Origin: an uncultured Planctomycetota bacterium
GTDB taxonomy: Bacteria > Planctomycetota > Planctomycetia > Gemmatales > HRBIN36
NCBI GenBank assembly: GCA_937944855.1
Contig: CALFAY010000032.1
Location: 10,194-74,193 of the forward strand
DNA: 64,000 nt
Direction of reading: 5' to 3'
Shown: in pieces, positions 13,142 through 61,664 of the stretch
Layout: every line of letters begins with the position of its first letter
How positions within the stretch are numbered: the stretch's first letter is position 1
Notes under the pieces: generated by a model
The model's database searches: none
Told to the model about the DNA's origin: nothing
Seen by the model: only the letters and a program-made list of their open reading frames with translations
Translations under genes and position numbers: made by a program

Positions 13142-15444
<2,303 letters not shown>

Positions 15445-31226: not shown

Positions 31227-31239
31227 TTGTAAAGATGGA

Positions 31240-31690: not shown

Positions 31691-34508
<2,818 letters not shown>

Positions 34509-34955
34509 GCATTGATCCCGTGCTCGGGTTCCGCCGTTGCCGACCTCACCCGCTACGCGATCAATCGTCCGCTACTGCGTAACGATGATCCTTCGCTCTC
34601 CTAAGGGCTCGTTGCTGAGAACTTCCTCTCCAGGCAGCCTTGCGGCTGCCTGGCGACGGAAGATGCAACTCTTACCGCTGCCGAATTGTCAAAGATCCTG
34701 CGTCCCGCCAGATCTCCCCGACGGAACCGCCCAAAATGGGCAGGAGTCGCTGCATCTCTTCCTTGCCATGCCGCGACTCGCGCCCACTCCAGCGATCGTG
34801 TCGGCCGGTTCAGATTAGATATGCGAGCGGCTCAGAGGTTTCAAGATCCGCTCACATTTTTTTTTCCGATCTCGGCCTCTCATCAAGGCTCAGCTTCCTC
34901 GGTAGCCGTTATGGTAGGCTGGGCGGCTATCGGCGGCAAGACCGGCAACATTTTT

Positions 34956-35028
34956 TGGAGACGACCGGGGTCGAACCGGCAACCTCCGGCTTGCAAAACC
35001 GGCGCTCTCCCAATTGAGCTACGTCCCC
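34956..35028 (-). tRNA. tRNA-Ala (anticodon UGC)
   Basis: The reverse complement is GGGGACGTAGCTCAATTGGGAGAGCGCCGGTTTTGCAAGCCGGAGGTTGCCGGTTCGACCCCGGTCGTCTCCA. It folds as a cloverleaf with anticodon loop TTTGCAA. It has the G3:U70 alanine identity pair. CCA is not encoded. Confidence 0.9.
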
Positions 35029-35316: not shown

Positions 35317-35427
35317 GAGGTTGGTGCGCAACATTCTTCCCATGCCTCCTTTCGGCTCAGCGGGCCTGCTTTTCCAGTCTCCGCATAAAGCCCGCAGGCC
35401 AGTATCCGGAGGTTGGTGCGCAACATT
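35317..35427. repeat. Two perfect 19-nt direct repeats (GAGGTTGGTGCGCAACATT on the plus strand, AATGTTGCGCACCAACCTC on the minus strand) 92 bp apart, upstream of the rRNA operon
   Basis: The copies lie at 35317-35335 and 35409-35427. A 9-nt partial third copy (GCGCAACAT) lies at 35149-35157. On the minus strand both full copies are followed within 4-6 nt by TACT. Confidence 0.8.
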
Positions 35428-36192
35428 TTTCGTCCCCTTCATCGAACTGACATTTTCCATTTGTGAAGTAATCTCCGCCGAGAACTTCTGAAGGAATGCC
35501 CAGCTTGCGTAAACCCGGGCTAACACCTTGATAACGCTCCCTTAGCTACCGTGTTGCTTCCTGGATTCTAACCACTTGCTGCACCGCCGGTAACCTCGGT
35601 CGCAGCGGTCAGAGCGAAGCGGCTCGGGCCAAAAGTGGTGTTGGCACAACTGTCTCGATGCGATATGAGACTGTGTTGCTTGGCGGACACGACTTGCTGC
35701 TTCGGAACAGCGCAGCCGGTGCTCGAGATTGAGCAAGGCACTGCTTCGGCTGGTATGTTCAACCGACCAAGTGACCGAGGGCGGAATCGGGCGCAGGAAC
35801 ACAAAGGCCTGCAAGGGCTTGGGAAAATCGAAGTATCGCGGTCCAAGCGTGAAAGTCCGGAAAAATCGCGGAAAAAAAGGCATGAAGTTTGCGACATGTT
35901 ATTTCCGCTTCAGTAGCCCAGCGCCGCGAGCCGAGAGAAATAGACGAAGCACTTGCTCAGGCAAGGAGTTGCGAGCTAAAGTGCAACAGAGGAACAGAGG
36001 CAGGTCGTCAAGTCACCCTGGCCGTTCCAGCGATGCTTGAGGCCCGGCGAGACCGACCGAGGCCGGCCACGTCGGGGCGAAATCCTGCCCTGGTGTTCAC
36101 TGAGGGAAACGCTGTGACCAGGCATTGACCGGGGCGCACACCCATCGTCCGGGACGAAGACGGTGCGCGCCTCAAATCAGGGGGAGGCGCCG

Positions 36193-45864: not shown

Positions 45865-46575
45865 TCAGGCGGCCCGACGAGCCGGGAAAGGCGGGGTTCT
45901 TGCGGCAGCTTGTGCCGGGCAACTTGCCGCGGTTTCGGCACGGCGCGTCGCTTCCAGGAGGGCTGCTTCGACCCGGACGCGGTATTGCTCCAAAGCAGCC
46001 CGGTCAGCGTCGGCCGGGACCGTGATCGGATCCAGGGCCACGACGACCGCCTCGGTTCCCGGATGGGGGACGGCAAAGCGATCCCAGCTGCGGGCACGCC
46101 AGCATCTGCGATAGGCGATGCCGACCGGCACAATGGGCAGGCCGGTTTTCGAGGCGGCGAAGACAATGCCCGGCTGGACGCGGCGGCGCGGCCCCCGGGG
46201 ACCATCGGGGGTGATCAGCAGATGCGAACTCCGACCCTTGTCCACTAGTTCCCGCAAGGCTTCCGCTCCTCCACGCGTGCTTGACCCACGTACCGTCTGG
46301 TAGCCCAGGTAATGACAAACCTGGGCGATCAGTTCGCCGTCCGCATGACGGCTGATGAGGACGTGAAACCTGCCACGGAAGCGGATGCCAGTCGGGAAAA
46401 GCAGATGCTCGTGCCACAGAGCGTAAATGAAGCGTCCCGACAACTTCGGATCGTTCGGGTGTACCGGAGTTTTCGGAAGCAGGAAGCGGTAGCGGAGGCT
46501 CCGCATCCAGAAGCGGACAATCAGCGCCGCCAGAAAAGCCGCACAGGCAATCAGCACCGGATGACGCAGTTTCAT
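45865..46575 (-). CDS. DUF374 / lysophospholipid acyltransferase-like protein
   Basis: From ATG 46575: MKLRHPVLIACAAFLAALIV..., FIYALWHEHLLF, and ITPDGPRGPRRRVQPGIVFAASKTGLPIVPV. Confidence 0.65.
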   Translation of the reverse strand: MKLRHPVLIACAAFLAALIVRFWMRSLRYRFLLPKTPVHPNDPKLSGRFIYALWHEHLLFPTGIRFRGRFHVLISRHADGELIAQVCHYLGYQTVRGSSTRGGAEALRELVDKGRSSHLLITPDGPRGPRRRVQPGIVFAASKTGLPIVPVGIAYRRCWRARSWDRFAVPHPGTEAVVVALDPITVPADADRAALEQYRVRVEAALLEATRRAETAASCPAQAAARTPPFPARRAA

Positions 46576-46831
46576 AGGAACGTCCGTGTCGCTTCGGCAG
46601 TCCGTTCGCAGTTTCAGACCGCGCGTCACGGTAGCAAGCCGTCGGGCCTTTTGCCAGAGCAGCTGGAGGAAGCACCAGACGTACTTGCGTTCCCCCGTCC
46701 CGCCGCTGGTCCAGCCCGCGCCCCGGCATACGATAAGAGCACGGTCAGGTCGGGCGAGCGGGCAGCATTAGTTGTCCGACAGGGCGAGCCGGGAGCGTCA
46801 GTTTCCAGAAGATGCGGCGGAGGCCACCAGC

Positions 46832-47911
46832 TTGAGACAGCGGACAGCCTTGTACGATTGGCACGTTTCCCACGGCGCTCGCATGGTGGACTTCGCCGGC
46901 TGGGACATGCCGGTGATCTACACCGGCATCGTCGAAGAGCATCAGGCGGTGCGGACGGGCTGCGGCATCTTCGACATCGGCCACATGGGCCGCCTGGAAA
47001 TCACTGGGCCCGAGGCCCTCGATCTCGTGCAGTATCTTTGCACGAACAATGCCGCCACGATGAAGGAAGGCCAGGTCCGCTACAGTCTGATCTGCAATGA
47101 ATCCGGCGGCGTGCAGGACGACGTGCTCATCTACCGCTGGCCCGATCGCTTCTGGCTCGTGGTCAACGCCGCCAACCGGCAGAAGATTCTGGACAGCATC
47201 GCCCGGATCCGAGGCTCTCGCCGGGCTACTGTAACCGACCTGACGCTGAACACGGGCATGGTGGCCGTCCAGGGGCCGAAAGCGCTAGAACTGTGCCGCG
47301 GTCTCGTGCCTGTGGACCTGGAAGCCATCCCCTACTATTTCGCGGTGCGAACGACGTTCCAGGGCGAGGAGTGCAAGGTCAGCCGCACCGGGTACACCGG
47401 CGAAGATGGCGTCGAGTTTGTGGTTCCGTCAGAAAAGATTGCGGAGCTTTGGTCCACCCTGGCCGAACGGGGCTGCCGGCCGTGCGGCCTCGGAGCGCGG
47501 GACACGCTGCGGCTCGAAGCGGCAATGCCCTTGTACGGTCACGAACTGACGGAAGAGATCGATCCGTTCCAAGCCGGGCTGGGCTGGGCGGTGAAGTTCG
47601 ACAAGGGCGACTTCCTGGGCCGGGACAGCCTAAAGATGAGACAGCAGGACGCCACCCTGCCGCGGCGGGTCGGGCTGGAGCTGCCCGGCAAACGCATCGC
47701 CCGGGAGGGCTACCCGGTGCTGGCGTTGGATGGTCGGCCGATCGGCCATGTGACCAGCGGCACGCTTGCCCCGACGCTGCAAAAAAGCATCGCCATGGCC
47801 TATGTGCAGCCGGAATTCACGACTCCGGGTACACCAGTGCAAGTGGACATCCGCGGCAAGCCGGAGCCGGCCGGGGTGGTCAAATTGCCGTTCTACTCCC
47901 GCAAAAAGTGA
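46832..47911 (+). CDS. gcvT: Glycine cleavage system aminomethyltransferase T
   Basis: RTALYDWHVSHGARMVDFAGWDMPVIY, RTGYTGEDGVEF, and LGARDTLRLEA. I prefer the TTG start at 46832 (GGAGG at 46819-46823, 8-nt spacing). The track ORF starts at TTG 46772 with a low-complexity extension. Confidence 0.88.
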   Translation: MRQRTALYDWHVSHGARMVDFAGWDMPVIYTGIVEEHQAVRTGCGIFDIGHMGRLEITGPEALDLVQYLCTNNAATMKEGQVRYSLICNESGGVQDDVLIYRWPDRFWLVVNAANRQKILDSIARIRGSRRATVTDLTLNTGMVAVQGPKALELCRGLVPVDLEAIPYYFAVRTTFQGEECKVSRTGYTGEDGVEFVVPSEKIAELWSTLAERGCRPCGLGARDTLRLEAAMPLYGHELTEEIDPFQAGLGWAVKFDKGDFLGRDSLKMRQQDATLPRRVGLELPGKRIAREGYPVLALDGRPIGHVTSGTLAPTLQKSIAMAYVQPEFTTPGTPVQVDIRGKPEPAGVVKLPFYSRKK

Positions 47912-47958
47912 AACGGGCGTGGAACAGGACAGAGCGACAATCGTCAGGCGGAGGCAGA

Positions 47959-48342
47959 ATGGACCCGAAAGACTTGCGGTACGCTCCGACCCATGAATGG
48001 GCGGTGCAGAAGAAGGATTTGGTGATCGTCGGCATCACCAGGTTCGCTGTCGATCAACTGACCGACATTGTTTATGTGGACCTGCCCGACGTCGGCGACC
48101 ACACGTTCGCCGGGGATAGCTTCGGGGAAATCGAGTCCGTCAAGGCGGTCAGCGATCTGTATGCCCCCGTGAATGGGGAGATCGTCGAGATCAACAAGAA
48201 GCTGCTCGACAACCCGAAACTGCTCTCCGAAGACCCCTACGGAGCTGGCTGGCTGGTCAAGATCCGTCCCGAGCCGGGCCAGACGCTGGATCATCTGATG
48301 ACCCTGGAACAGTACGAGAAGCAGATTGCCGAAGGCCACTAG
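47959..48342 (+). CDS. gcvH: Glycine cleavage system H protein
   Basis: From ATG 47959: YAPTHEWA, and the lipoyl-lysine motif EIESVKAVSDLYAPV. Confidence 0.9.
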   Translation: MDPKDLRYAPTHEWAVQKKDLVIVGITRFAVDQLTDIVYVDLPDVGDHTFAGDSFGEIESVKAVSDLYAPVNGEIVEINKKLLDNPKLLSEDPYGAGWLVKIRPEPGQTLDHLMTLEQYEKQIAEGH

Positions 48343-48378
48343 TTCGGCATCCCTCACCCGTTGCACAAGCGAACTGCG

Positions 48379-49728
48379 ATGTCCTACATCCTCAATACCG
48401 AAGCCGATCAGCGGGCCATGCTCCGCGAAATCGGGGTGAACTCGCTGGACGAGCTTTTCGAGGCCATTCCCCCGGCTTGCCGGTTGAACCGCGATCTGGC
48501 CGTGCCGCCCGGCCTGACCGAGATGGAACTGACGGCCCACCTGACCGAACTGGCCCGGAAGAACCGCTCGGCAGACGACACCGTCTGCTTTCTTGGCGGA
48601 GGCAGTTACGACCACTTCATCCCGGCGGTCGTGGACGTGATCGCCAGCCGCAGCGAGTTCTACACCGCTTACACGCCCTACCAGGCCGAGGCCAGCCAAG
48701 GCAGCCTCCAGGCGTTCTTCGAGTATCAGACGCTCATTTGCCAATTGACCGGGATGGATGTGTCGAACGCCAGTCTGTACGACGGCGGCAGTGCAGTCGC
48801 CGAGGCCGCCCTGATGGCCCTTGCTGCGACTGGAAGGCAGGGGCCGATCCTCATTGCCGAAAGCGTCCATCCGGAGTACCGGCTCAATCTTCAGACCTAT
48901 CTGACCAATCTCGATTCGCAGGTGGTTACGCTGCCGACGCCGTCGGGGCGACTCGATCCGGACGACCTGCGCAGGAGTCTGACCGCTGACACGGTCTGCG
49001 TGATCGTGCAGCATCCAAATTTCTTTGGCTCTCTGGAGGAGGTCGAAGAGATCGGCAAACTGGCTCACGAACATGGGGCCTTGTTCGTCGTCAGTGTGGA
49101 TCCGATCAGCCTGGGGCTTTTGCGTCGGCCGGGCGAGTACGGAGCAGACATCGTCGTCGCCGAGGGGCAGGGTCTGGGAACTCCGATGCAGTTCGGGGGA
49201 CCGTATCTCGGGATTCTCGCCTGTCGGGAGCAGTTCGTCCGCAAGATGCCGGGACGACTCGTGGGCCAGACCACCGACCGCAACGGCAAACGGTGCTGGG
49301 TCCTGACGCTTCAGACCCGCGAACAGCACATCCGCCGGGAGAAGGCCACGAGCAACATCTGCACCAATCAGGGCCTGCTCGCACTGCGGGCCACGGTCTA
49401 TCTCGCCGCCCTGGGGCCGCTGGGGCTGCGGGAAACCGCGGAATTGTGCCTGCGAAAAGCTCATTACGCCGCTGAGCAGTTGACTCGGCTGCCCGGCGTC
49501 CGGCTCCGCTTCACGCATCCGTTCTTCAAGGAGTTCGTCCTCCAAGTACCCGGCGACGTGTCAGCGGTCTTGTCCAAACTGCTGCGGGAAGGGTATCATG
49601 CTGGTCTGCACCTGGGACGCTGGCATCCGGGCCTGTCCGATTGTCTGAGCATCGCGGTCACGGAAAAACGGACCAAAGGCGAGATCGCCGGTCTGGTTGA
49701 AGCGTTTCGCAAGGTTCTGGGCGGCTGA
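48379..49728 (+). CDS. gcvPA: Glycine dehydrogenase (decarboxylating) subunit 1
   Basis: From ATG 48379: FLGGGSYDHFIP, YTAYTPYQAEASQGSLQ, and TREQHIRREKATSNICTNQ. Confidence 0.9.
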   Translation: MSYILNTEADQRAMLREIGVNSLDELFEAIPPACRLNRDLAVPPGLTEMELTAHLTELARKNRSADDTVCFLGGGSYDHFIPAVVDVIASRSEFYTAYTPYQAEASQGSLQAFFEYQTLICQLTGMDVSNASLYDGGSAVAEAALMALAATGRQGPILIAESVHPEYRLNLQTYLTNLDSQVVTLPTPSGRLDPDDLRRSLTADTVCVIVQHPNFFGSLEEVEEIGKLAHEHGALFVVSVDPISLGLLRRPGEYGADIVVAEGQGLGTPMQFGGPYLGILACREQFVRKMPGRLVGQTTDRNGKRCWVLTLQTREQHIRREKATSNICTNQGLLALRATVYLAALGPLGLRETAELCLRKAHYAAEQLTRLPGVRLRFTHPFFKEFVLQVPGDVSAVLSKLLREGYHAGLHLGRWHPGLSDCLSIAVTEKRTKGEIAGLVEAFRKVLGG

Positions 49729-49760
49729 AGCCTCCTGCATCCGATCCACGGAGGGATCCT

Positions 49761-50240
49761 ATGCGCATTCCGACCTTGGCTCTGGCAGTGTGTCTGACCT
49801 TTCCCCTCCTGTTTCAAGGCGGCGGAGTTCGGGGAGAAGACGCCCCCTCGGAGCGGGTGATTCATGCCGCCGTGGTGGCCTTCCTCGAAGCGGTCAAATC
49901 GCAAAGTTCCGAGGCCGTGATGAAGACCGTGGACGTGCCCTGGTTCCACATGGGCGAGGAAGTCATCAAAGAGCGCGACAAACTCAAAAGCGAATTCGAT
50001 TCCCTGTTCCGCCGACGGACCTTCTCCGATCTTCGCTTCGAGATTCTGAAAACCGCTGCCTACGACTTGATTCGGGATCGCACGACCGCTGAAGAACGCC
50101 AGCTGCTCGACGCCGTGCTCGGTCCCAAGGACATTGTTGTCCTGATCTCGATGGACACGCAGATGAATCGGAATCGCAAGGTCGTGCTGCTCGTCCGCTC
50201 CAGCGGCAAGGAAGCCAAGGTCGTCGGACTGAAGGAGTGA
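49761..50240 (+). CDS. Secreted hypothetical protein
   Basis: 159 aa. MRIPTLALAVCLTFPLLFQGGG is a signal peptide. I recognise no family. Confidence 0.5.
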   Translation: MRIPTLALAVCLTFPLLFQGGGVRGEDAPSERVIHAAVVAFLEAVKSQSSEAVMKTVDVPWFHMGEEVIKERDKLKSEFDSLFRRRTFSDLRFEILKTAAYDLIRDRTTAEERQLLDAVLGPKDIVVLISMDTQMNRNRKVVLLVRSSGKEAKVVGLKE

Positions 50241-50247
50241 AGGCGGC

Positions 50248-51408
50248 GTGAGGATCTTGTTCGTCACTTCACGGCTGGACTTCGGCGGCCTTGAGCGGCA
50301 ACTGGCCCTGCTGGTCCAAGGCGTGCGGGATGCCGGCTGGTTCCCCGAGATCGCATGCCTGGGCAGCCTGGGCGAAGCCGCGGAGAAGCTGATCGCTCCC
50401 CCCGTCCCCGTCCACAGCTTCTCCGGCCACCGGCACGATCCCCGCCTGCTGTCGTGGCTTTGCCGAGTCATTTCCAGGAATAAGCCGGACCTGATTCACG
50501 TCTGGAACCAGATGGAAATCCTGGTTGGGTTGTTGGCGGTCATCGCTTTTCCCGGCATTCCTGTGGTCGCCACAGCCGAGCGGCCCGACTGGCTGGGTGA
50601 GCCGTGGCGACGCTGGCTCAATCGGTTGCTTGACCTGCGCATTTCCCGCTGGGTCATTCCGAGTTGTGGAGCCGCAGCGGCCTGGCAACAAGGCGGCCTG
50701 GCTTCGGAACGCCTGAGCGTGATCGAACCCGCCATTGAAATCCCAGACTTTTCGCCAGTTTCGCCGACTGATTTGCGTCGGTCTTTGAACGTCCCCGACG
50801 ATGCCCCGCTGATCGTCGCCGCCGGGCGGCTCTCCGCGGATTATGCCTTTCGGGACGCCTTGTGGGCTTTTGACATCCTAAAATATGTGCAACCGCGAGC
50901 CGTGCTGGCCGTGCTCGGCGACGGGCCGGATCTTCCCAAGCTGGAACGCTTCGCCGCGGACATTCGGCTCGGCAATCAGGTGCGCTTCCTGGGTCGGGTT
51001 TCGCATTTGAAACCGTGGCTGACGGCAGCCGATGTCGTCTGGGTGCCCAATCTGGCCGGGGAAGTGCCGGATGTCCTTCTGCAAGCCATGGCATTGGGCA
51101 GGCCGATCGTCACTCTCAGAGTCTCGGCCGTGGAAGGCTTCCTGGAAGACGGCCGACATGCCGTGCTAATGCCGAAGGGCGACCAACCCGCCCTGGCTCA
51201 GGCGACGCAGCGATTGCTCGCTGATCGGGCAACGGCCCGCAGGTTGGGAAGCGCGGCTCGACAGCTGGCTGGAGAGCGATTCTCGCCGAAAAAGATGATT
51301 GACAACTACCTGACACTGTACCGGAGCCTGGCAGGCTCGGCGAGAGTCGGGCCTGATCCTGCCCGGGCAGTGCGGCTCCCGACATCGCACCTGGAGCGTA
51401 CCGCATGA
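50248..51408 (+). CDS. GT4-family (GT-B fold) glycosyltransferase
   Basis: GTG start. MRILFVTSRLDFGGLERQ, and a C-terminal donor-binding region (GEVPDVLLQAMALGRPIV). Confidence 0.75.
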   Translation: MRILFVTSRLDFGGLERQLALLVQGVRDAGWFPEIACLGSLGEAAEKLIAPPVPVHSFSGHRHDPRLLSWLCRVISRNKPDLIHVWNQMEILVGLLAVIAFPGIPVVATAERPDWLGEPWRRWLNRLLDLRISRWVIPSCGAAAAWQQGGLASERLSVIEPAIEIPDFSPVSPTDLRRSLNVPDDAPLIVAAGRLSADYAFRDALWAFDILKYVQPRAVLAVLGDGPDLPKLERFAADIRLGNQVRFLGRVSHLKPWLTAADVVWVPNLAGEVPDVLLQAMALGRPIVTLRVSAVEGFLEDGRHAVLMPKGDQPALAQATQRLLADRATARRLGSAARQLAGERFSPKKMIDNYLTLYRSLAGSARVGPDPARAVRLPTSHLERTA

Positions 51409-52709
51409 CACCGACCCCCGACGGATTCTCCTCTATTCCTGAAGCGATCGAGGACCTCAAAGCCGGTCGCATGATTGTGCTCGTTGATGACGAACAGCGG
51501 GAAAACGAGGGCGACCTGGTCATCGCTGCCGAGAAGGCGACGCCGGAAGCGATCAACTTCATGATGACCCATGCCCGCGGGCTGGTCTGTCTGGCCATGT
51601 CGCCAAGCATCTGCGACCGGCTTCAGCTGGAACCGATGCCCGGCAATCATCCCGACCCGACGGCGACGCCATTCACGCCCTACATCGACGCCCGCACCGG
51701 CATCACCACCGGCGTTTCGGCCTACGACCGGGCCAGGACGGTCCAGGTGGCCATCGATCCGCGCTCCACGCCCAACGACATCATCCGCGGCAAGGGCCAC
51801 GTTCCCGGTCTGCGGGCCAGGGAAGGCGGCGTACTGGTCCGGGCCGGACACACCGAAGGCAGCGTCGATCTGTGCCGTCTGGCCGGGCTGAAGGAAGCGG
51901 CGGTCATCTGCGAGATCGTCAGTCCCGATGGTCAAATGGCCCGGGTTCCCGAACTTCGGGAGTTCTGCCACAAGCACGGGCTGAGGATGTACACCATCCA
52001 GGACCTCATCAGCTATCGGCGCCAGCGGGAGAAACTGATCCGCCGAGAGGAGGTCGTGAAACTGCCCACGGAATATGGGCTGTTCGATTTGATCGCTTAC
52101 ACCTCCGTGGTCGATGCCGAACCGCACCTGGCCCTCACGATGGGCGGCGTCGGTCTGGAACAAGGCGGCGTCGTCCCCGTGCAGACCGAGCCGATCCTCG
52201 TCCGTATCCACAGCGAATGCCTGACCGGCGACGTCTTCGCCAGCCGACGCTGCGAATGCGGCGCGCAATTGCATCAGGCCATGCGCCAGGTCGCCGCTCA
52301 GGGCAAGGGCGTCGTCCTCTACATGCGTCAGGAAGGTCGAGGCATCGGACTATTGGCAAAACTGAAGGCGTATAAGCTCCAGGAGGAAAAGGGTATTGAC
52401 ACCGTCGAGGCCAACCGCCAGCTCGGCTATGCTCCAGATTTGCGCCACTACGGCATCGGCGCGCAAATCCTGGTCGATTTAGGCATCCGGCAAATCCGGC
52501 TGCTGACGAATAATCCCAAAAAGGTCGTTGGTCTGGACGGCTACGGTCTGCGTATCGTCGAACGCATCCCCATCCAAATCCAGCCCAATGAAACCAATCG
52601 GGCCTACCTGCTGGCCAAGAAAATTAAGCTGGGACACATGATCGAATTGACAAGCCACGCGGGGACTTCGCAGCCCCCTCCCGCGGGCCCTCGGTCCGAT
52701 GCGGTTTAA
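51405..52709 (+). CDS. ribBA: Bifunctional 3,4-dihydroxy-2-butanone-4-phosphate synthase / GTP cyclohydrolase II
   Basis: 434 aa. DDEQRENEGDLVIAAE, HTEGSVDL (RibB half). RIHSECLTGDVFASRRCECG, and LYMRQEGRGIGL (RibA half). ATGA start/stop overlap with the upstream GT gene. Confidence 0.92.
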   Translation: MTPTPDGFSSIPEAIEDLKAGRMIVLVDDEQRENEGDLVIAAEKATPEAINFMMTHARGLVCLAMSPSICDRLQLEPMPGNHPDPTATPFTPYIDARTGITTGVSAYDRARTVQVAIDPRSTPNDIIRGKGHVPGLRAREGGVLVRAGHTEGSVDLCRLAGLKEAAVICEIVSPDGQMARVPELREFCHKHGLRMYTIQDLISYRRQREKLIRREEVVKLPTEYGLFDLIAYTSVVDAEPHLALTMGGVGLEQGGVVPVQTEPILVRIHSECLTGDVFASRRCECGAQLHQAMRQVAAQGKGVVLYMRQEGRGIGLLAKLKAYKLQEEKGIDTVEANRQLGYAPDLRHYGIGAQILVDLGIRQIRLLTNNPKKVVGLDGYGLRIVERIPIQIQPNETNRAYLLAKKIKLGHMIELTSHAGTSQPPPAGPRSDAV

Positions 52710-53737
52710 TGCAAGCGATGGCGGTAAGGCGGGCGTCGTCGAGGGTGTTTCACGCGGACCCTGCGTCGCGGTTGCCTGGTGTCCTGGCCGTCGTAGATGC
52801 GCGTCGTCCATCCGCCGGCCCCGGCCACCCGGTGCAGTCCCACATGCAAACGCCCCGCCCAGTGCATCCAGGACACTAACGCCGCCGGGACATCGCGGTA
52901 AACGGCAGGCCCCACGATGCCGCGCAACCAGCCCCGCTGGCCGGTCCGGTGCGAAGTCTTCCACTGTTCAAAGATCCTGAACTCGGACCGCTCCATGCTC
53001 ACGTTCGCGCCAGCCGCTTTCAAGCCAGCGAAGTCCGCCTCCAACGGCTGGTCATATAACGCCGCCAGCCTGCCGAGGCAGCGTAAGGCCGCGCGCAACA
53101 GATCGCTGAAGCTCGGCGTCAGGATCATCCGGCGTCCCTGGGGATCGCTGCCGTCGCGCAAAAACAGAGGCTGGTCCAGGCGCACTTCCAGTGTGGGAAT
53201 CAGGGACGGGGCCTCGTCGCAGCTGCGGGGCAGTTCGACTTCGAGCCAGCGGTCCTGAGCCGGTTGTTGCAAGACCTGGAACAAGACGCCGTCCGTGCCC
53301 AACCCGCTCTCCGGATCGGCCCCGGCAATCTGAGCGGCTTGCCAGAACGTCGCAGCATGTTGAGCGGCACGCTCTGCGATGAAGACGACTCGCAGCGTAT
53401 ATACACTCCCGACCTCCGCGTAGGGCGGCGCAGGAAAGGACGGATCAATCACAGAGGGCCGAACCGCGTCTTCTTGACCGACAAAGACCACCGCGCTGGG
53501 ACCAGGATCCGGTTCGATGACAGATCCGTAAGGACATTCAAAATTATAAGGACAGCCTTTGCAGTATATCCAAAGAGCGTCGCGTTCCTCCGGATCATGA
53601 CGACAGGTCATCATCTTGAGCCGGTGGACAATTAAACCTCGCAGGGCCGGCCCGAGCCACGGTACCAGTCGGCCCGGTCGCATGAAACGCAAAGTCCGTC
53701 GGCATTCCATGCAAAGAAAAACTTCCAACTGGCGCAA
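52706..53737 (-). CDS. Orphan RAMP / Cas6-like protein (resembles the DUF2276 / Pfam CRISPR_Cas6 family from memory)
   Basis: 343-aa ORF; TTG at 53737 or ATG at 53710 as start. The N-terminus LRFMRPGRLVPWLGPALRGLIVHRL is followed by a Cys cluster (C-x15-C-x2-C-x5-C-P-Y-G). The C-terminus has WKTSHRTGQRGWLRGIVG and a glycine-rich loop, HVGLHRVAGAGGW. This layout matches what I recall for stand-alone Cas6-like RAMP proteins. The functional call is tentative. Confidence 0.5.
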   Translation of the reverse strand: MRQLEVFLCMECRRTLRFMRPGRLVPWLGPALRGLIVHRLKMMTCRHDPEERDALWIYCKGCPYNFECPYGSVIEPDPGPSAVVFVGQEDAVRPSVIDPSFPAPPYAEVGSVYTLRVVFIAERAAQHAATFWQAAQIAGADPESGLGTDGVLFQVLQQPAQDRWLEVELPRSCDEAPSLIPTLEVRLDQPLFLRDGSDPQGRRMILTPSFSDLLRAALRCLGRLAALYDQPLEADFAGLKAAGANVSMERSEFRIFEQWKTSHRTGQRGWLRGIVGPAVYRDVPAALVSWMHWAGRLHVGLHRVAGAGGWTTRIYDGQDTRQPRRRVRVKHPRRRPPYRHRLH

Positions 53738-53915
53738 CGAGACATGGCCGTTGAGAGGCCATAAAGCCCATCAACAGGCATTCCCTTCGAGCGTGTGCTG
53801 CCTCTGGCCGGTGTGGGCCGATCCGTGTACATTACTCGTCTGGCGGTCGCGGTCAGTACCTTGTCCTGGGGCTGGTAAACCGCGGATCGTTTTGCCAATA
53901 CAGGAAGGACAGATC

Positions 53916-54854
53916 ATGAGGTGGTACACAGTAGGCGTCACGGCGGTGGTGCTGGCATTCTGGGCCGGATGCAGGTCGACAGAGCAGCCGTCAAGCGACG
54001 GCGTCCGCCTCTTCGGTGTGTCCTTTCAGACGATGAATAACCCATTTTTCGTCGAGTTGAATGAGGGCCTCAAAGGGGTCATCGAGGCGCGGGGAGGGCG
54101 GCTAATCACGTTGGATGCGCAATGGAATTCGCTAAAGCAAAAAAATGACGTGGCTGATTTGTTGCAGCAGAACCCGTCAGCAGTGTTTATTAATCCAGTA
54201 AACTGGGAAGGAATCAAAGGCAGCTTGCTCGAAGCCCGTCGCAAAAATGTGCCTGTTATCATCGTCGATGCGCCGGTCAGCGAGCCGGATTTGGTGCTGT
54301 GTCAGGTGGCTAGCGACAATTTTGAAGCCGGCCGACTGGCATGTGAATCCCTGGCCAAGGCCAATCCCAGGGCCAAGATCGTGATTCTTCACCTAAGCGT
54401 CAACCGCGCCTGCATCGATCGTGTCGAGGGATTCAAGGCGGAAATGGCCAAACATCCAGGATTAAAAGTCCTGGACATTCAGGAAGGTAAAGGAAGTACT
54501 GAAGGGGCACGCCCCGTCATGCGCGACCTCCTTGGCCGTTTTCCAGAACTGGACGCGGTCTTTCCCATCAATGATCCCAGCGCTTTAGGGGCCATCTCAG
54601 CGATCGAAGCTGCCGGTCGCATCGGGCAGGTTACCGTGGTCACGGTGGACGGTTCGCGAGAGGGTGCCTTGGCAATTCAAGCGGGTAAACTGCATGCCAC
54701 CGTGGCCCAATTCCCCCGGGAAATTGGCCGCATTGCCGGCGAAAAAGCCTACGATCATCTCGAAGGCAAGCCCGTCGAGAAGGACATCAAAGTCCCCGTG
54801 AAGCTGATCACCAAAGAGAATGTCCACGAGATTTTAAACGCCAGCAAAAAATAA
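53916..54854 (+). CDS. Sugar ABC transporter substrate-binding lipoprotein (RbsB/periplasmic-binding-protein type I)
   Basis: From ATG 53916 (MRWYTVGVTAVVLAFWAGC is a lipobox). GVSFQTMNNPFFVELNEG, and VPVIIVDAP. Confidence 0.85.
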   Translation: MRWYTVGVTAVVLAFWAGCRSTEQPSSDGVRLFGVSFQTMNNPFFVELNEGLKGVIEARGGRLITLDAQWNSLKQKNDVADLLQQNPSAVFINPVNWEGIKGSLLEARRKNVPVIIVDAPVSEPDLVLCQVASDNFEAGRLACESLAKANPRAKIVILHLSVNRACIDRVEGFKAEMAKHPGLKVLDIQEGKGSTEGARPVMRDLLGRFPELDAVFPINDPSALGAISAIEAAGRIGQVTVVTVDGSREGALAIQAGKLHATVAQFPREIGRIAGEKAYDHLEGKPVEKDIKVPVKLITKENVHEILNASKK

Positions 54855-56374
54855 TGGCCGATCCTTCCACCTGCCTATTGGAATTGCGCGGAATCTGCAA
54901 GAGCTTCGGAGGGATCCAGGCGCTACGGGGAGTAGATTTCACGCTCCACGAAGGGGAAATCCACGTCCTGCTGGGTGAAAACGGCGCGGGCAAATCAACG
55001 CTCATCAAGATTATCGGCGGTGTTCACCAGCCTGATGCGGGAGAAATACGGATTGGCAATGTCCCGGTTCGCATCCCCAATGTGCGAGCGGCGGAACGCC
55101 TGGGAATCCGTATTATCCATCAGGAGCTTGTGCTGGCACCGAACCTTTCCATCGCGGAAAACTTGTTTTTGGGGCGGGAACCGTGTCGCTTCGGCTTTCT
55201 GGATCGAGGCCGGATGTTTCGAGACGCGGAGCGTTTGAAGACCGAGTTGGACTTGCCTGAAATTGGCGACGTGCGCACCCCGGTGGGTCAACTGAGCGTG
55301 GCTCGCCAGCAATTGGTAGAAATCGCCCGGGCCTTGACCGGGGCTCTGCGGATTCTTGTGCTTGACGAACCGACGGCGTCCCTGAGTGAAGCCGAGACCG
55401 AGGCGCTGTTTGCCAAACTCCGCCGGTTGCGCTCCCAGGGAGTGGGAATCATTTATATTTCCCATCGTCTTGAGGACATTGAACGCATCGCTGAGCGCAT
55501 CACAGTACTTCGGGACGGACGGAGCATCGGAACGCAGCGGGCCGGGAACCTGGATGTTCCTCAACTTATGACCTGGATAGCGGGGCGCGAGGTCAAAGAT
55601 CGTTATCCGCGCCCGGTTTATCAACCGGGTGAGGTCATCCTGAGCGTACGCAACCTGCAGGCTCCCGGCGTGCATAATGTCAGTTTCGATGTGCGCGAGG
55701 GGGAGGTTCTGGGTTTTGCCGGTCTGGTGGGTGCAGGACGAACCGAATTAGCGCGCGCGCTGGTCGGATTGTCTCCGATTTATGGCGGAGAGGTTCTCTT
55801 AAACGGCCGTCCATTGCGTTTGCGCAGTCCGGGCGATGCCCGAAGGGCTGGAATAGTCCTGGTGCCTGAGGATCGCAAACGTGAGGGGCTGATTCTGACC
55901 CAGACGGTAGGGTTCAATCTGGCTTTGCCGTGGACGCGGCTGTGGGCGCGGGGAATTGTCCCAAATTATACGCGGCGCACCGCCATCATCCGAAACGCGA
56001 TCAGGAACTTTTCCATCCATCCAGGCAACCCCAATCAAAGTGTCGCTTCGCTCTCCGGCGGCAATCAGCAGAAAGTGGTCGTGGCGAAATGGATGGAGCA
56101 ACCCCCTAGGGTACTCATCCTCGATGAACCGACGCGCGGGGTCGATGTAGGCGCTCGCGAAGATATGTTCACGATCATCGGCCAATTGGTGACCCAACGC
56201 ATGGCGGTGTTGCTTATTTCGTCGGACCTCCCCGAAGTTATGAACCTCTCGCATCGCTTGGCGCTATACCGCGACGGACGGATCGTCCAGGAGGGACCGG
56301 CCGCGAACTTCACTCCGGAAGCGGTGATGATGGAACTGACCGGCGCGGCATCGAAAGGCAAGATGGCTCAATAA
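54854..56374 (+). CDS. Sugar ABC transporter ATP-binding protein (tandem ATPase domains, RbsA-like)
   Basis: 506 aa. Walker A is GENGAGKST. The signatures are LSVARQQ and LSGGNQQK. Walker B is ILVLDEPT and ILILDEPT. A TAATG overlap links it to the upstream gene. Confidence 0.9.
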   Translation: MADPSTCLLELRGICKSFGGIQALRGVDFTLHEGEIHVLLGENGAGKSTLIKIIGGVHQPDAGEIRIGNVPVRIPNVRAAERLGIRIIHQELVLAPNLSIAENLFLGREPCRFGFLDRGRMFRDAERLKTELDLPEIGDVRTPVGQLSVARQQLVEIARALTGALRILVLDEPTASLSEAETEALFAKLRRLRSQGVGIIYISHRLEDIERIAERITVLRDGRSIGTQRAGNLDVPQLMTWIAGREVKDRYPRPVYQPGEVILSVRNLQAPGVHNVSFDVREGEVLGFAGLVGAGRTELARALVGLSPIYGGEVLLNGRPLRLRSPGDARRAGIVLVPEDRKREGLILTQTVGFNLALPWTRLWARGIVPNYTRRTAIIRNAIRNFSIHPGNPNQSVASLSGGNQQKVVVAKWMEQPPRVLILDEPTRGVDVGAREDMFTIIGQLVTQRMAVLLISSDLPEVMNLSHRLALYRDGRIVQEGPAANFTPEAVMMELTGAASKGKMAQ

Positions 56375-56412
56375 CTCCGCTTTGAGTCAGCTTTGTTACA
56401 CCAGGTAGAACT

Positions 56413-57444
56413 ATGCGCAATGCAGAGCACGGAAACCGGACTTCTAAAGGCACCCTCGCTCTCTCCGGATGGCGACAACTTATCGCCACCTTGGTCTCAG
56501 CGGCGCAGGGATTATTACCTTTATTACTTGCCATCGCGGTGCTGCTTGTTCTTTTTAGTCTGTGGGTTCCCCAAGGCCGTTTCCTGAGATTTGATAATCT
56601 GATCGATCTGGCCCAGCAGGTTTCTGTTAATGCCATCCTCGCTTTTGGACTGACGCTGGTAATTCTCATTGGCGGTATCGACCTGAGTGTCGGTGCCGTG
56701 GTCGCCGTTGCTGGCGTAGTCTCGGTCTCCCTGCTGACCCCGGCAGGTCCCGTGGTTGCTTTCCTTGGCGGCATTGGAATCGGTGCGCTGTTCGGACTGT
56801 TTAATGGTCTCTTTGCTGCCCGGACTCTCATGCCTCCGTTCATCATTACCCTGGCAACGATGCTTGTCGCGCGCGGTTTTGCCTTGGGTTTTAACGAAAG
56901 CCGCCCGTTGCCTGTGGGAGAGGAGCAGCACCTGTTCCTGTCGCTGGGCAACGCGCGTTGGTGGGGCTGGCTGCCCATGCCGGTGATCCTCATGCTTGTA
57001 GTCTTCGTGTTCAGCACGATCCTGTTGCACGGAACTCGGTTCGGCCAACATCTGTTCGCCATCGGCGGCAACCGGGAGGCGGCCCGGCTTGCGGGCATTG
57101 CCATCGCTACGCATGAAGTGCTGGTTTACGTCTTCTGCGGCGCCTGTGCGGGATTGGCGGGAATGATTCATGCCTCGCAGCTTTATTCGGCCGAGCCGGC
57201 AGCCGGTCAAGGCTACGAGCTGAGCGCCATCGCCGCGGTCGTCCTGGGCGGGACGAGCTTCTCCGGCGGCGTCGGCAGTGTCCCCGGCACGCTGGTGGGG
57301 GCGATCATCATCGGCATTTTGGATAAAGGCCTGAACCAGGCCGGAGTTCATTTTTCGCTGCAGTACATCGTCAAAGGCGGGGTCATCTTAGCCGCAGTCT
57401 GGTACGATGTCTTCCGCCGTCGCGTGAAGAGTCGACAGGCATAA
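56413..57444 (+). CDS. Sugar ABC transporter permease (RbsC/branched-chain-type)
   Basis: 343 aa, polytopic. ILIGGIDLSVGAVVA, and GGNREAARLAGI. Confidence 0.85.
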   Translation: MRNAEHGNRTSKGTLALSGWRQLIATLVSAAQGLLPLLLAIAVLLVLFSLWVPQGRFLRFDNLIDLAQQVSVNAILAFGLTLVILIGGIDLSVGAVVAVAGVVSVSLLTPAGPVVAFLGGIGIGALFGLFNGLFAARTLMPPFIITLATMLVARGFALGFNESRPLPVGEEQHLFLSLGNARWWGWLPMPVILMLVVFVFSTILLHGTRFGQHLFAIGGNREAARLAGIAIATHEVLVYVFCGACAGLAGMIHASQLYSAEPAAGQGYELSAIAAVVLGGTSFSGGVGSVPGTLVGAIIIGILDKGLNQAGVHFSLQYIVKGGVILAAVWYDVFRRRVKSRQA

Positions 57445-57483
57445 TTACAAGTTCATCAACGGCAAACACGAGGAAGCCTTGTT

Positions 57484-59859
57484 ATGATCTCTACACCGCT
57501 TCGTTTCCTGAGCTTTGTTGTGTCTCTGGCAACAGGCTCGCTCCTCCTAGTGACGACTGCCAGTAAGCCCGATTTTAACAACCCCAAACGGGTCTTCTCA
57601 ACGGCGATCGCCGTGTGGCACCTGGCGGATGCTCACGATTCGGCAGGCGAAGACAGCGTCCTGACGCCGCGGGGGGAAGTTCGCTTGGGAACTGCTCTGA
57701 AAGGTGCCGAACGGGAGGCGTCTATAAAACGGGGAGGTGACGGCAGGGTCGCGGAACTGCGCGAGGGCTGGCTGGACGCTGGTCAAGGGCGCAATGGAGA
57801 ATTGAATCTTGAAGGCGAGCAGTTTACGGCGCTGATTCGTATGCGCGCTCCCACGCTGACGGCCTGGGATACCCGAGGATATTTTACCAAGGGAGGAAGC
57901 CATGACCGTTTGGTGTTCAATTTCTTTACATTTGACTTCGGCGCCGGCCCTGAGAATATGCGCCTGGGTTGTGAGATCGGCGTCGAGGGGAAGCCCGGCC
58001 TTGCCGCGCAGGTGACCGTTCCTCTGGCTCAGATTGGTCCGACCGACTGGCATGACGTCCTTGCCCGTTATGATGGCCGCGAACTCGTGCTGTTTATCGA
58101 CGGCGTGCCCGTGGATCGCAAGCCGGTGACTGGCCGGCTGCGTCAGAACAACAATGAGTCGCTGGCCCTTGGCGCAGGCGGCCCCGGTGACGATCCCTTC
58201 CCCGGATTAATCGATCATGCTGCCCTGTGGAATCGCGCGCTAAGCGATGAGGAAATCGTCATCCTTTGCGGAGGGAAGGACGAGGTCGAGCGCCATCGAA
58301 CACAGTTCGCTGCCGCGGCATCAGCGAGCCGATTGCCCTCAACGCAGGACCTGGTAGAAAGCTACCGGACCCTGATCAACAAGTTTCATAACGATCCCCA
58401 TCGGCCCCGTTATCACTTCTTGCATTTTGAAGCAGGTGACGCCATGCCTGGCGACGCCAACGGCGCCATCTATTGGAAGGGGCGGTACCACCTCTTTTAC
58501 ATTTTTCAACGGCAACAGGCAGGCTCCAAGCAGATCGTCCATTGTTGGGGACACGCCTCCAGCGTGGATTTGCTTCACTGGGAACATCATCCTGTGGCCC
58601 TCGACGTCGCTGCGGAAGATCCCGATCGTGGCATCTTCTCGGGCAACGCTTTTGTGACTAAGGACGGAAGACCGGTCATTCTTTATCATGGCGTCGATGC
58701 TGGCAATTGCATCGCTCTCGCCGAGGACGATCTTCTGATTCGCTGGAAAAAGTCGGCAGACAATCCCATAGTTCCGATGCCGAAACCAGGCACCCCCGAT
58801 TACGGCAAATACGATTCCTGGGATCCTCACGGTTGGCTGGAAGGCGACACCTATTATGCCATATTTGGAGAAAATCCCGGTACGGGCACGAAGGCAGCCT
58901 TGTTTAAAGGCCCGTCACTGACACAGCTCGCCTATGTCGGCCGCTTCATGGCTTACGATCGGTGGAGCGAGCCGGGTGAAGACATCTCCTGTCCGGATTT
59001 CTTCCCGATTGGCAATAAACACATGCTGCTTTGCATTAGTCATATGCGCGGCGCCCGCTACTTCATAGGCCATTGGGACAAGCAGAAGGGCGTGTTCACC
59101 CCGGAGTTCCATGGTCGAATGAATTGGCCTGGCGGTTGCTTCTTTGCTCCAGAAACCTTGCTGGATGGCAAAGGCCGTCGCATCCTGTTTGCCTGGTGCC
59201 TTGATGAGCGTCCGCGGGCTGCTCGGATAGCCAGCGGTTGGAGCGGAGTGATGAGTCTGCCTCGGGTATTGAGCTTAACGGATGATGGCACGCTCCGCAT
59301 TGAACCTCCGGAAGAGCTTAAGCAACTTCGCTTCGCGCCGCTGTCCAACCGTGGCAACCTGAGTATTCCCGCAAATCAGGAATTGGTCCTGAACGAGATC
59401 CAGGGAGACAGCTTGGAAATCGAAGTGGAATTGCAACCGCAAGATAATGCCGAATGCGGCGCCGTTGTCCGACGCACGCCTGACGGTGAGGAACAAACAG
59501 TCATCGGCTTCCGTCCCGACAAGGCAGTTTTGAGCATTGACGTCAGCAAAAGCACGCTGGATCCAGCGATTCGCTACCGGAGCTGGTGCTTGTGGCGGCC
59601 TCAGAATCCGGCAGATGCCGACCGGCGCGTGCTGGTTCAGGAGGCCCCGCTTGCGTTGAGTCGAGGAGAACCATTGCGTCTGCGAATCTTTCTGGACCGA
59701 TCCATGTTAGAAGTCTTCGCTAATGGACGACAATGTATGACGCAACGGCTCTGGCCGACACGGTCTGATGCCTTGGGCGTATCCCTGTTCAGCCGTGGTC
59801 GCCCCACCCATGTGACCTCGCTGAACGCTTACCGCATGGCCGCCACCGCGCCGCATTAA
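57484..59859 (+). CDS. LamG (concanavalin-A-like) domain plus glycoside hydrolase family 32-like protein with a non-canonical EC motif
   Basis: 791 aa. An N-terminal signal/anchor precedes the LamG-like region (...LVLFIDGVPV...IDHAALWNRALSDEEI). GH32 blocks follow: RPRYHFLHFEAGDAMPGDANGAIYWKGRYHLFY, WGHASSVDLLHWEHH, FSGNAF, and SWDPHGW. The ISCPDFFPI block sits where GH32 has W-E-C-P-D-F-F. Confidence 0.75.
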   Translation: MISTPLRFLSFVVSLATGSLLLVTTASKPDFNNPKRVFSTAIAVWHLADAHDSAGEDSVLTPRGEVRLGTALKGAEREASIKRGGDGRVAELREGWLDAGQGRNGELNLEGEQFTALIRMRAPTLTAWDTRGYFTKGGSHDRLVFNFFTFDFGAGPENMRLGCEIGVEGKPGLAAQVTVPLAQIGPTDWHDVLARYDGRELVLFIDGVPVDRKPVTGRLRQNNNESLALGAGGPGDDPFPGLIDHAALWNRALSDEEIVILCGGKDEVERHRTQFAAAASASRLPSTQDLVESYRTLINKFHNDPHRPRYHFLHFEAGDAMPGDANGAIYWKGRYHLFYIFQRQQAGSKQIVHCWGHASSVDLLHWEHHPVALDVAAEDPDRGIFSGNAFVTKDGRPVILYHGVDAGNCIALAEDDLLIRWKKSADNPIVPMPKPGTPDYGKYDSWDPHGWLEGDTYYAIFGENPGTGTKAALFKGPSLTQLAYVGRFMAYDRWSEPGEDISCPDFFPIGNKHMLLCISHMRGARYFIGHWDKQKGVFTPEFHGRMNWPGGCFFAPETLLDGKGRRILFAWCLDERPRAARIASGWSGVMSLPRVLSLTDDGTLRIEPPEELKQLRFAPLSNRGNLSIPANQELVLNEIQGDSLEIEVELQPQDNAECGAVVRRTPDGEEQTVIGFRPDKAVLSIDVSKSTLDPAIRYRSWCLWRPQNPADADRRVLVQEAPLALSRGEPLRLRIFLDRSMLEVFANGRQCMTQRLWPTRSDALGVSLFSRGRPTHVTSLNAYRMAATAPH

Positions 59860-61025: not shown

Positions 61026-61088
61026 GTGCTTGTTCCCGCCTCTTCGCGGCTCGCCCCCCGAGAGCGTGGAACGGGAACGCGGTGGCCC

Positions 61089-61664
61089 ATGGAGCCTGCC
61101 CGGAATGAGTTCCAGGTGTTGATGGACCAGGTCCTCGCCGGCTCCGAAGACGCGGCGAGGCAATTAGTCCGCACCTATGGCCCGGCCGTCCTGCGGGCCG
61201 TGCGTCGCAAGCTCAATGGCCGTCTGCGTTCCAAGTTCGATTCCGATGACTTCGTGCAGGATGTCTGGGCCTCGTTCTTTGCGTCCCCTCCGCGGAACCA
61301 TGTGTTCACGTCGCCCCACGATCTGGCGGCTTTTCTGATCCGTGTGGCCCGGAATAAAGTCATCGACGTGGTTCGTCAGCGGTTGCACCGCCAGCGTTAC
61401 GACGTTACGCGGGAGCAGTCGCTGAACTCCTGCGACGGAGCGCTCGAGCATCGGCTCGTCTCTCCCCATGCTTCGCCCAGTACGGTTGCGATGACCGCGG
61501 AGGAGTGGGAGGTGCTTCTGCGAAAAGTGCCTTTGGTCTACCGGGCAGTTCTTCTGCGCTACCGCGAGGGCCAGACACCGACGCAGATCGCCGCCGCTCA
61601 GGGGATCAGTGAACGAACCGTCCGCCGGGTTCTGTCCCGGTTTGTCCCAGGATATGCATCATGA
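61089..61664 (+). CDS. ECF-type RNA polymerase sigma factor
   Basis: From ATG 61089. Region 2 is DDFVQDVWASFF...LIRVARNKVIDVVRQ. The region 4 HTH is LRYREGQTPTQIAAAQGISERTVRRVLSR. Confidence 0.8.
   Translation: MEPARNEFQVLMDQVLAGSEDAARQLVRTYGPAVLRAVRRKLNGRLRSKFDSDDFVQDVWASFFASPPRNHVFTSPHDLAAFLIRVARNKVIDVVRQRLHRQRYDVTREQSLNSCDGALEHRLVSPHASPSTVAMTAEEWEVLLRKVPLVYRAVLLRYREGQTPTQIAAAQGISERTVRRVLSRFVPGYAS

Follow-up and report, generated by a model that had tools for sequence, protein, structure and literature searches.

A cas6 gene and one degenerate repeat left after the loss of an RT-Cas1-Cas2 module in a Gemmatales genome

The cas6 gene, its product and its surroundings

The DNA analysed here, referred to as the window, is a stretch of 64,000 nucleotides (64 kb) from an uncultured Planctomycetota bacterium of the Gemmatales (GenBank assembly GCA_937944855.1, contig CALFAY010000032.1, positions 10,194 to 74,193). 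Its minus strand carries a cas6 gene whose maximal open reading frame (ORF) extends over 52706..53737 and codes for 343 amino acids from a TTG start at 53737, exactly as the first-pass annotation of this DNA had described it. On its 3' side, cas6 converges with ribBA (51405..52709, plus strand), the stop codons of the two genes overlapping in the TTAA found at 52706..52709, also as annotated. On its 5' side, it abuts a solitary degenerate repeat of the CRISPR (clustered and regularly interspaced, short palindromic repeats) type (53731..53768, plus strand; GGCGCAACGAGACATGGCCGTTGAGAGGCCATAAAGCC), beyond which lies a sugar-uptake cluster (53916..59859, plus strand) in which a periplasmic binding protein, an ATP-binding cassette (ABC) ATPase, a permease and a GH32 hydrolase were recognized with Pfam. 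Comparison with relatives, for which ribBA and the sugar cluster served as syntenic anchors on the 3' and 5' sides of cas6, respectively, shows that the orphan state of the gene results from the loss of an adjacent module coding for a reverse transcriptase (RT), Cas1 and Cas2, together with its leader and array, one repeat being left as a scar.

The window protein matched the Pfam CRISPR_Cas6 family (PF10040) with 27.1 bits, the curated gathering cut-off being 25, and the PADLOC Cas6 model PDLC01477 with an E-value of 2.7e-34, residues 10-309 being aligned to model positions 6-291 of 296. Two further PADLOC Cas6 models were also matched (E=2e-18 and 4e-08). No match was returned by an NCBIfam profile search, nor by a sequence search of the PDB carried out either with the single window protein or with a family profile of 57 sequences. 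The homologs carry PF27225 (AF_1859_N) and PF10040, some of them are named Cas6 by NCBI and JGI, and NCBI designates a 62%-identical ortholog as 'CRISPR system precrRNA processing endoribonuclease RAMP protein Cas6', RAMP standing for repeat-associated mysterious protein. The window protein thus already falls in a known, annotated family. 'Cas6 proper' covers COG1583 and COG5551, the latter having been assigned to it by Makarova et al. (2011, PMC3150331).

An AlphaFold2 model of the window protein was built from the alignment of 57 family members (mean predicted local distance difference test score 90.8, predicted template modelling score 0.87). In the predicted structure the beta-alpha-beta-beta-alpha-beta elements occur twice, corresponding to two tandem RNA recognition motif (RRM)/ferredoxin-like, or RAMP, domains. 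When the model was compared with the PDB by Foldseek, the 35 best matches were all Cas6 proteins or Cas6 domains, with E-values of 1e-12 to 1e-9 and target-normalised template modelling scores of 0.62-0.66. The top match was Sulfolobus solfataricus Cas6 (4ILL, E=1.7e-12), and the others included Thermus thermophilus TTHB231 (4C9D), 3ZFV, Streptococcus thermophilus 6FJW and the Cas6 domains of the Cas6-RT-Cas1 fusions 6DD5 and 7KFT. The two-RRM RAMP fold (predicted) and the C-terminal glycine-rich loop are therefore common to the window protein and to solved Cas6 proteins such as 4ILL, 4C9D and TTHA0078 (4C8Y), whereas sequence identity to the solved structures is only 12-17%. The first-pass annotation had recognized a Cas6/PF10040 protein from motifs alone, and this recognition is borne out by the Pfam and PADLOC profiles as well as by the Foldseek matches of the predicted fold. 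Since the sequence profiles, the predicted fold and the CRISPR context of the family (described below) agree, the gene is, as judged from sequence and model, a genuine Cas6 pre-CRISPR RNA (pre-crRNA) endoribonuclease of the PF10040/COG5551 (AF_1859-like) subgroup.

The four segments on which that recognition relied, an N-terminal segment, a cysteine cluster, a C-terminal basic segment and a glycine-rich loop, are all real and conserved in the 57-member alignment. In this alignment W27, G29, P30, A31, R33 and G34 are invariant or nearly so, cysteines C45, C59, C62 and C68 are invariant, and Q258, S262 and R264 are conserved. In the loop H298-V-G300-x-x-R303-x-A-G306-A-G308-G-W310, all positions of which are present in the window protein, G300, R303, G306 and G308 are invariant and the others nearly so. 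The cysteines (C-x13-C-x2-C-x5-C) belong to a confidently modelled insertion of about 50 residues (residues 45-94, nucleotides about 53456-53605), placed between helix alpha1 and the next strand of the N-terminal RRM. This insertion, which distinguishes the window protein from the solved Cas6 proteins of 240-280 residues, would probably form a zinc site. An invariant four-cysteine insertion without counterpart in the solved Cas6 structures matched could merit structural work.

Contrary to the usual setting of Cas6, the window copy has neither array nor cas partners nearby. No repeat-spacer array was found in the 64 kb by Tandem Repeats Finder and a direct-repeat search, the sole repeat families being one pair of 23-nt repeats and, near 2-3 kb, a coding repeat rich in glycine. 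Cas1, RT and Cas2 (from four related loci), Cmr2, Cmr3, Cmr5, Csx1 and SAVED/TIR proteins gave no tblastn match in the window, and in a PADLOC scan of its 58 ORFs, the 25 strongest of the 43 families matched included a single Cas family, Cas6. The window holds no array of at least two repeats with spacers, and the leader common to the related loci L005, L011 and L012 is absent from it. With no adaptation genes and no effector genes found, it does not contain a functional type III-B or RT-Cas1 locus. The statement of the first-pass annotation that the 64 kb contain no array and no cas1, cas2, cas3, cas7 or cas10 therefore stands, with the correction that a single degenerate repeat had been overlooked. 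The absence of a local array and of other cas genes weakens the claim that the gene belongs to a working CRISPR locus at this site, but leaves the identity of its product as a Cas6 unaffected.

The solitary repeat and the deleted module

The arrays linked to this Cas6 family share a repeat of 36-38 nt made of a GGCC-N7-GGCC-type hairpin followed by ATTGAAAC, a canonical example being GGCGCAGUGCGGUGUGGCCGUUCAGAGGCCAUUGAAAC. All the family repeats fold to the same hairpin of 6-7 bp, which ends 6-8 nt before the 3' end. From their sequence, this hairpin and the 8-nt ATTGAAAC 3' end are consistent with a Cas6 cleavage leaving an 8-nt 5' handle. The solitary repeat of the window, situated 21 nt from the cas6 ATG at 53710, has kept an intact GGCC-N7-GGCC hairpin and folds to the same structure, and its 8-nt 3' handle reads ATAAAGCC in place of ATTGAAAC. 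Distinct array repeats of the loci linked to this Cas6 family, 16 in number and with the window and L011 excluded, served to derive a covariance model. Its top match in the 64 kb was the solitary repeat, over the full length and with 19.5 bits (E about 0.003 under a rough calibration), whereas the next one (E about 0.1) was devoid of hairpin. The window has a single occurrence of the hairpin core, compared with a chance expectation of 0.04 matches. The model revealed no second repeat unit near the solitary one and there is no spacer, so the locus is not a mini-array.

The solitary repeat is orthologous to the sequence at 6355-6393 of L011 (33/39 identical positions), and it is identical to active family repeats at 21-27 of 38 positions. 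The covariance model also detected the L011 copy and another one, truncated where the L005 contig stops. The ends of the L005 and L012 contigs both fall within this repeat, some 370-400 bp downstream of cas1, and such breaks, the usual signature of an array, suggest that a real array is located there. For this reason the idea that L011 harbours a true one-repeat array was dropped; its single copy may reflect a collapsed array or an assembly path. Because the window repeat is positionally orthologous to the first array repeat of the relatives, it is a leftover and not an added element.

Standalone CRISPR repeat-like elements and regulatory mini-arrays were surveyed by Shmakov et al. (2023, PMC10120712), who describe a lone repeat-like sequence upstream of cas6 in type I-B loci and found neither standalone repeats nor targets to be conserved in type III systems. 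Like the elements described there, the lone repeat-like sequence of the window adjoins cas6. Unlike a regulatory mini-array, in which two repeat-like units flank a spacer with a partial promoter match, it consists of one unit with a degenerate handle.

Gene order was compared with that of ribBA-linked relatives, whose Cas6 proteins are 62-82% identical to that of the window. The succession gcvT/H/P, a 159-aa ORF, a glycosyltransferase gene, ribBA and cas6 is common to the window and to L004, L005, L011 and L012, and RibBA of the window is 95% identical to the RibBA encoded beside cas6 in L004, L005 and L011. The loci differ on the 5' side of cas6. In L010, L011 and L012 (Cas6 82% identical to the window protein; L011 and L012 encode the same Cas6) and in L005 (64%), this side is occupied by cas2-RT-cas1, divergent from cas6; in L004 (62%) there are no cas genes and cas6 is an orphan; in the window one finds one repeat and then the sugar genes. 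The overlap of 4 nt between the stop codons of cas6 and ribBA is also kept in L011, where cas6 ends at 11020 and ribBA begins at 11017. RibBA has 434 residues in the window and L011 versus 414 in L004 and L005, and its 20-residue C-terminal extension (window 52647-52709; L011 11017-11080) creates the TTAA overlap.

BLASTN alignments revealed two blocks collinear with L011: window 46000-53709 corresponds to L011 17698-10014 (88.6% nucleotide identity) and window 53796-59330 to L011 5553-19 (84.3%). Between them, about 86 bp of the window (the deletion junction, 53710..53795) stand in place of about 4.46 kb of L011, which comprise an ORF of 201 aa (x201), the repeat with its flank, a leader of about 380 bp, cas1, RT, cas2 and a cas2-cas6 intergenic region of 297 bp. 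The segment absent from the window also includes the first four codons of cas6 with the native start. The homology between the repeat regions of the window and L011 extends precisely up to the leader-proximal edge of the repeat and no further, and the entire leader is gone. One endpoint of the deletion is therefore positioned exactly on the leader-repeat junction, the site of Cas1-Cas2 integrase action.

The leader is located between cas1 and the first repeat (L011 6394-6769, L012 43-403, L005 31-390). It has conserved G-rich palindromes (TTGCCGACCCCC...GGGGGGGTCGGCAA) and an AT-rich box (TTCATCAAATCT) in loci whose Cas6 proteins are 64% identical. The 201-aa ORF (L011 5670-6275, minus strand) has no Pfam match and lies between the repeat and the sugar-binding-protein gene; its absence from the window is due either to a second deletion in the window or to an insertion in L011.

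Damage is visible at the 5' end of cas6. The BLASTN collinearity with L011 ends 13 nt inside the L011 cas6 ORF. In five relatives, the orphan L004 included (its annotated start is too short), the protein begins with an ATG and the sequence MLR[I/F]LECRRTLRF; this native start and N-terminus are absent only in the window, which has TTT at the position of the native ATG, then another ATG at 53710 (...FLC-M-ECRRTLRF). About the first nine codons of the 343-aa ORF are made of junction and repeat-derived sequence, the TTG at 53737 being inside the reverse complement of the repeat. The homologs best fit a start at ATG 53710 (M10), giving a protein of 334 aa. The public database version of the protein, P0001, starts at ATG 53683 (M19) and has 325 aa; with this start the N-terminal RRM would lack its first beta-strand. 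A promoter and terminator scan found nothing in the new upstream region of cas6. The similarity between AGTTGGAAGTT and AGCTGGAATT is weak and too short for significance; about 20 nt upstream of the native start might survive.

The polarity of the change is a loss and not a gain, since the module is present both in the sister loci (L010, L011 and L012) and in the outgroup L005 and since the window keeps the repeat. In this lineage, cas6 has long resided beside ribBA, and the adaptation genes, the leader and the array were on its 5' side. In the genome of the window, a deletion of about 3.6-4.5 kb took away cas2, RT, cas1, the leader, the cas2-cas6 promoter region and the native cas6 start codon, and fused the first CRISPR repeat, now degenerate, to the 5' end of cas6. 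Since this event the locus allows neither spacer acquisition nor crRNA production. The first-pass annotation had offered a relic of a lost CRISPR locus as one explanation of the orphan gene, and this proposal is directly supported by the presence of cas2-RT-cas1, a leader and a repeat at exactly this position in the relatives and by the repeat kept in the window.

The module lost resembles the RT-Cas1/Cas2/Cas6 modules of type III systems, in that the closest relatives of the window have cas6 beside cas2, RT, cas1, a leader and a repeat, whereas the window keeps only cas6 and one repeat. The Cas6 domains of the Cas6-RT-Cas1 fusions (Marinomonas mediterranea 6DD5; the 7KFT/7KFU complex) are among the structural matches of the window protein; unlike in these fusions, Cas6, RT and Cas1 are encoded by separate genes in the family studied here, cas6 being divergent from cas2-RT-cas1. 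Isolated cas loci without array within 10 kb have been read either as remnants or as partners of remote arrays (Zhang and Ye 2017, PMC5294841), and the same two readings are reached here for the window cas6. Those loci were defined by at least three cas genes, whereas the window has a single one, and in the window, unlike in those loci, comparison with a collinear relative places the deletion at nucleotide precision.

The Cas6 family elsewhere and the remainder of the window

The neighbourhoods of the homologs, which the first-pass annotation had proposed to examine, place Cas6 in CRISPR loci, with some orphans. Homologs about 45% identical to the window protein sit in L001 and L003 within complete type III-B loci that contain Cas1, RT, Cas2, Cmr2/Cas10, Cmr3, Cmr5, Csx1-like and SAVED/TIR proteins and long arrays. 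In about half of the metagenome loci of at least 5 kb, from a set of 72 loci in all, the Cas6 homolog has RT-Cas1, Cas2, Csx1, Cmr or RAMP genes and/or arrays beside it, and the tblastn screen on which this proportion relies undercounts CRISPR linkage. Two candidate orphans of this screen were rejected, L076 because of an array at the contig edge and L085 because of large RAMP-fusion neighbours. Scanning of a genome collection, from which the source genome of the window is absent (its own copy gave no match), with the core of the repeat yielded multi-copy matches at a spacing of about 76 bp in Gemmatales metagenome-assembled genomes only, one of which has the same repeat in arrays on two contigs. 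Rfam has no family for this repeat. In the related planctomycetes (Gemmatales), this Cas6 subgroup belongs to type III-B systems with an RT-Cas1-Cas2 adaptation module.

Orphan homologs also occur, in the L073 group, L084 and L057, and solo copies thus recur in this Cas6 family. In L068-L074 (for example L073 10001-10873), the homologs are about 42% identical, that of L073 being found among planctomycete DUF1559/N-methyl proteins, and L084 (10001-10843) holds a homolog of the same identity group among sulfatase and beta-helix genes. None of the cas genes tested was detected in L068-L074 and L084, where the repeat covariance model gave weak matches only. In L057, a canonical solitary repeat (GTTGCTCCCCTCATGGCCGAACAGCGGCCGTTGAAAC, 13236-13272, plus strand, 31.3 bits) is located 2.3 kb downstream of the Cas6 homolog, beside which no cas neighbours were detected. 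This locus is a second instance of the state in which Cas6 is accompanied by one repeat.

The first-pass annotation had placed cas6 between ribBA and a lower-GC sugar island. The position is correct and the GC content is modestly lower over the sugar genes (0.55-0.59 versus 0.61-0.64), but the cluster is not an inserted island. Its ABC ATPase and permease are, respectively, 91% and 88% identical in amino acids to those of L011, and because L011 has the same genes in the same order beyond cas1 and x201, the cluster predates the split. An insertion of the sugar cluster separating cas6 from its CRISPR locus was rejected on the same ground.

Several features of the window lie apart from the cas6 locus. 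Genes for 23S rRNA (31689-34508), 5S rRNA (31239-31348) and a tRNA (34956-35028) are grouped on the minus strand at 31239-35028, and no 16S rRNA gene is present anywhere in the 64 kb, the rRNA operon and its 16S gene being unlinked. A direct repeat of 23 nt, GAGGTTGGTGCGCAACATT[C/T]TTC, occurs at 35317-35431 in two copies 92 bp apart, immediately upstream of the tRNA and 23S genes. Degenerate coding repeats rich in glycine and phenylalanine, with periods of 9, 15 and 24 nt, extend over 2003-3214; they belong to the adjacent ORFs 1753-2613 and 2607-3410, and the two blocks resemble each other. At 61026-63946 (plus strand), an ORF resembling extracytoplasmic function sigma factors overlaps the start of a gene for a Ser/Thr kinase of 761 aa with a tail of the tetratricopeptide repeat type. 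This kinase alone accounts, via its generic kinase domain, for 27 PADLOC matches (mad6, PD-T4-6, MkoA, PglW), and a defence island based on them was rejected. The PADLOC matches to mad3 and mad8 come from other proteins of the window.

Selection on cas6 and its present role

The coding sequence of cas6 is not decaying, and neither relaxed selection nor rate acceleration is observed. The window protein keeps 22 of the 22 family-invariant residues and deviates at one of the 74 columns conserved at 85% or more, the family median being three. Between the window and L011, dN/dS is 0.146 for cas6 (dN 0.094, dS 0.644), compared with 0.07-0.31 for flanking housekeeping genes. Relative-rate counts of amino-acid changes gave 13 for the window versus 15 for its sister with L005 as outgroup, and 7 versus 18 with L004. 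When codon changes were polarised by outgroup, 5 nonsynonymous changes fell on the window branch along with 26 synonymous ones, versus 10 and 19, respectively, for its CRISPR-linked sister; synonymous sites are lost preferentially in this polarisation, a bias that runs against the conclusion of non-relaxation. As a rough estimate, at most about one-sixth of the window branch can have been neutral. The second orphan at the same ribBA position, L004, probably represents an independent loss and is also intact, with a dN/dS of 0.09 versus L005. This unrelaxed selection on cas6 leaves two possibilities, a recent deletion or a Cas6 that remains in use.

On sequence grounds, we lean towards a continued function of Cas6 in trans on arrays located elsewhere in the genome. 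The protein would still be made, from the replacement start ATG 53710, and would act on GGCC-N7-GGCC-ATTGAAAC repeats, cutting 8 nt before their 3' end, in the service of a type III effector whose genes would likewise lie elsewhere in the genome. This function is favoured because the 10 kb flanking cas6 on each side in L011 are free of effector genes, and because separation from arrays is commonest, among the CRISPR types, for type III loci (PMC5294841). It is also made plausible by the one Gemmatales metagenome-assembled genome that has the family repeat in arrays on two contigs. The purifying selection on cas6 after the loss of its neighbours, in the window and in L004, fits a reliance of type III systems on a Cas6 encoded away from arrays and effectors.

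Several points weigh against it. The trans-acting step is one that we purely infer, and possibly the genome had no array besides the local one. The deletion took the promoter region and the start codon of cas6, and with a start at M19 the N-terminal RRM would be incomplete. In a genome of 62% GC, where stop codons are rare, an intact ORF carries little weight, and the same selection signal would be expected if the deletion were very recent. Most of these points are also those of a second explanation, a real if doubtful possibility, in which a recent deletion took the promoter, the start codon, the partners and the only array, leaving a cas6 gene that is unexpressed or useless and in which disabling mutations have yet to build up. 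The loss does extend to the promoter region, to the native ATG and to the first four codons. No sigma-70-like promoter was detected in the new 205-bp upstream region, in a scan that covers planctomycete promoters poorly. The 3' handle of the adjoining repeat is degraded, the 64 kb hold no other cas gene or array, and the breaks of the relatives' contigs at this repeat indicate that the local array was apparently the real working one, while the high GC content leaves ORFs open by chance. However, with 5 nonsynonymous against 26 synonymous changes and no acceleration, the neutral period could occupy only a small fraction of a branch with a dS of about 0.3. Moreover, all invariant residues are intact, an in-frame ATG allows a nearly full-length protein, and the orphan L004 has remained intact as well.

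It is improbable that Cas6 has been diverted to a non-CRISPR RNA, for instance by binding or cutting the hairpin of the solitary repeat or similar hairpins as a regulatory or RNA-processing pair. Action on such an RNA had been the other suggestion of the first-pass annotation, and no positive evidence was obtained for it. The purifying selection kept in the absence of local CRISPR partners, the retention of the repeat between cas6 and the sugar operon, the canonical solitary repeat kept by the orphan L057, the recurrence of orphans in planctomycete contexts and the known regulatory standalone repeats (PMC10120712) would all be compatible with such a role. Nevertheless, the repeat has lost its conserved 3' handle and has neither second unit nor spacer with which to form a mini-array; its functional strand faces away from cas6, and the 21 nt to the coding region leave no room for an upstream promoter. 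The conserved upstream region of the sugar operon (53796-53915) is downstream of the repeat, the contexts of the orphans have no conserved neighbour in common, and the survey cited reports no conserved standalone repeats or targets for type III. A wider version, in which the cysteine-cluster Cas6 would have been kept by purifying selection at a fixed site after CRISPR loss in several Gemmatales lineages, at times with a lone repeat (window, L057), and co-opted as a stand-alone protein binding or cutting hairpins of host transcripts and not serving immunity, is if anything less probable still.

Least probable of all is an assembly artefact in which adaptation genes and array exist but were collapsed or skipped at the repeat: assemblies do often break or collapse at CRISPR repeats, the L005 and L012 contigs terminate within this one and L011 passes through a single copy that is possibly a collapsed array, but such a collapse could hide spacers and not 3.6 kb of unique cas2-RT-cas1-leader sequence between repeat and cas6, the junction bears changes specific to the window (degraded handle, lost ATG, linker of 20 nt), and the window's contig spans 185.6 kb.

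Isolated cas genes and lone repeats are documented phenomena, and the window locus is a well-explained CRISPR remnant with a well-resolved history. The decay is of an ordinary kind, the finding leaves the current understanding of CRISPR biology unchanged, and its interest is mainly for CRISPR specialists; it closes the orphan-Cas6 question raised by this locus. With deletion breakpoints visible to the nucleotide, the orphan Cas6 is what a mapped deletion left of an RT-Cas1-Cas2-Cas6 module; it is no enigmatic stand-alone RAMP, and the locus constitutes a clean natural example of the stepwise decay of a CRISPR locus.

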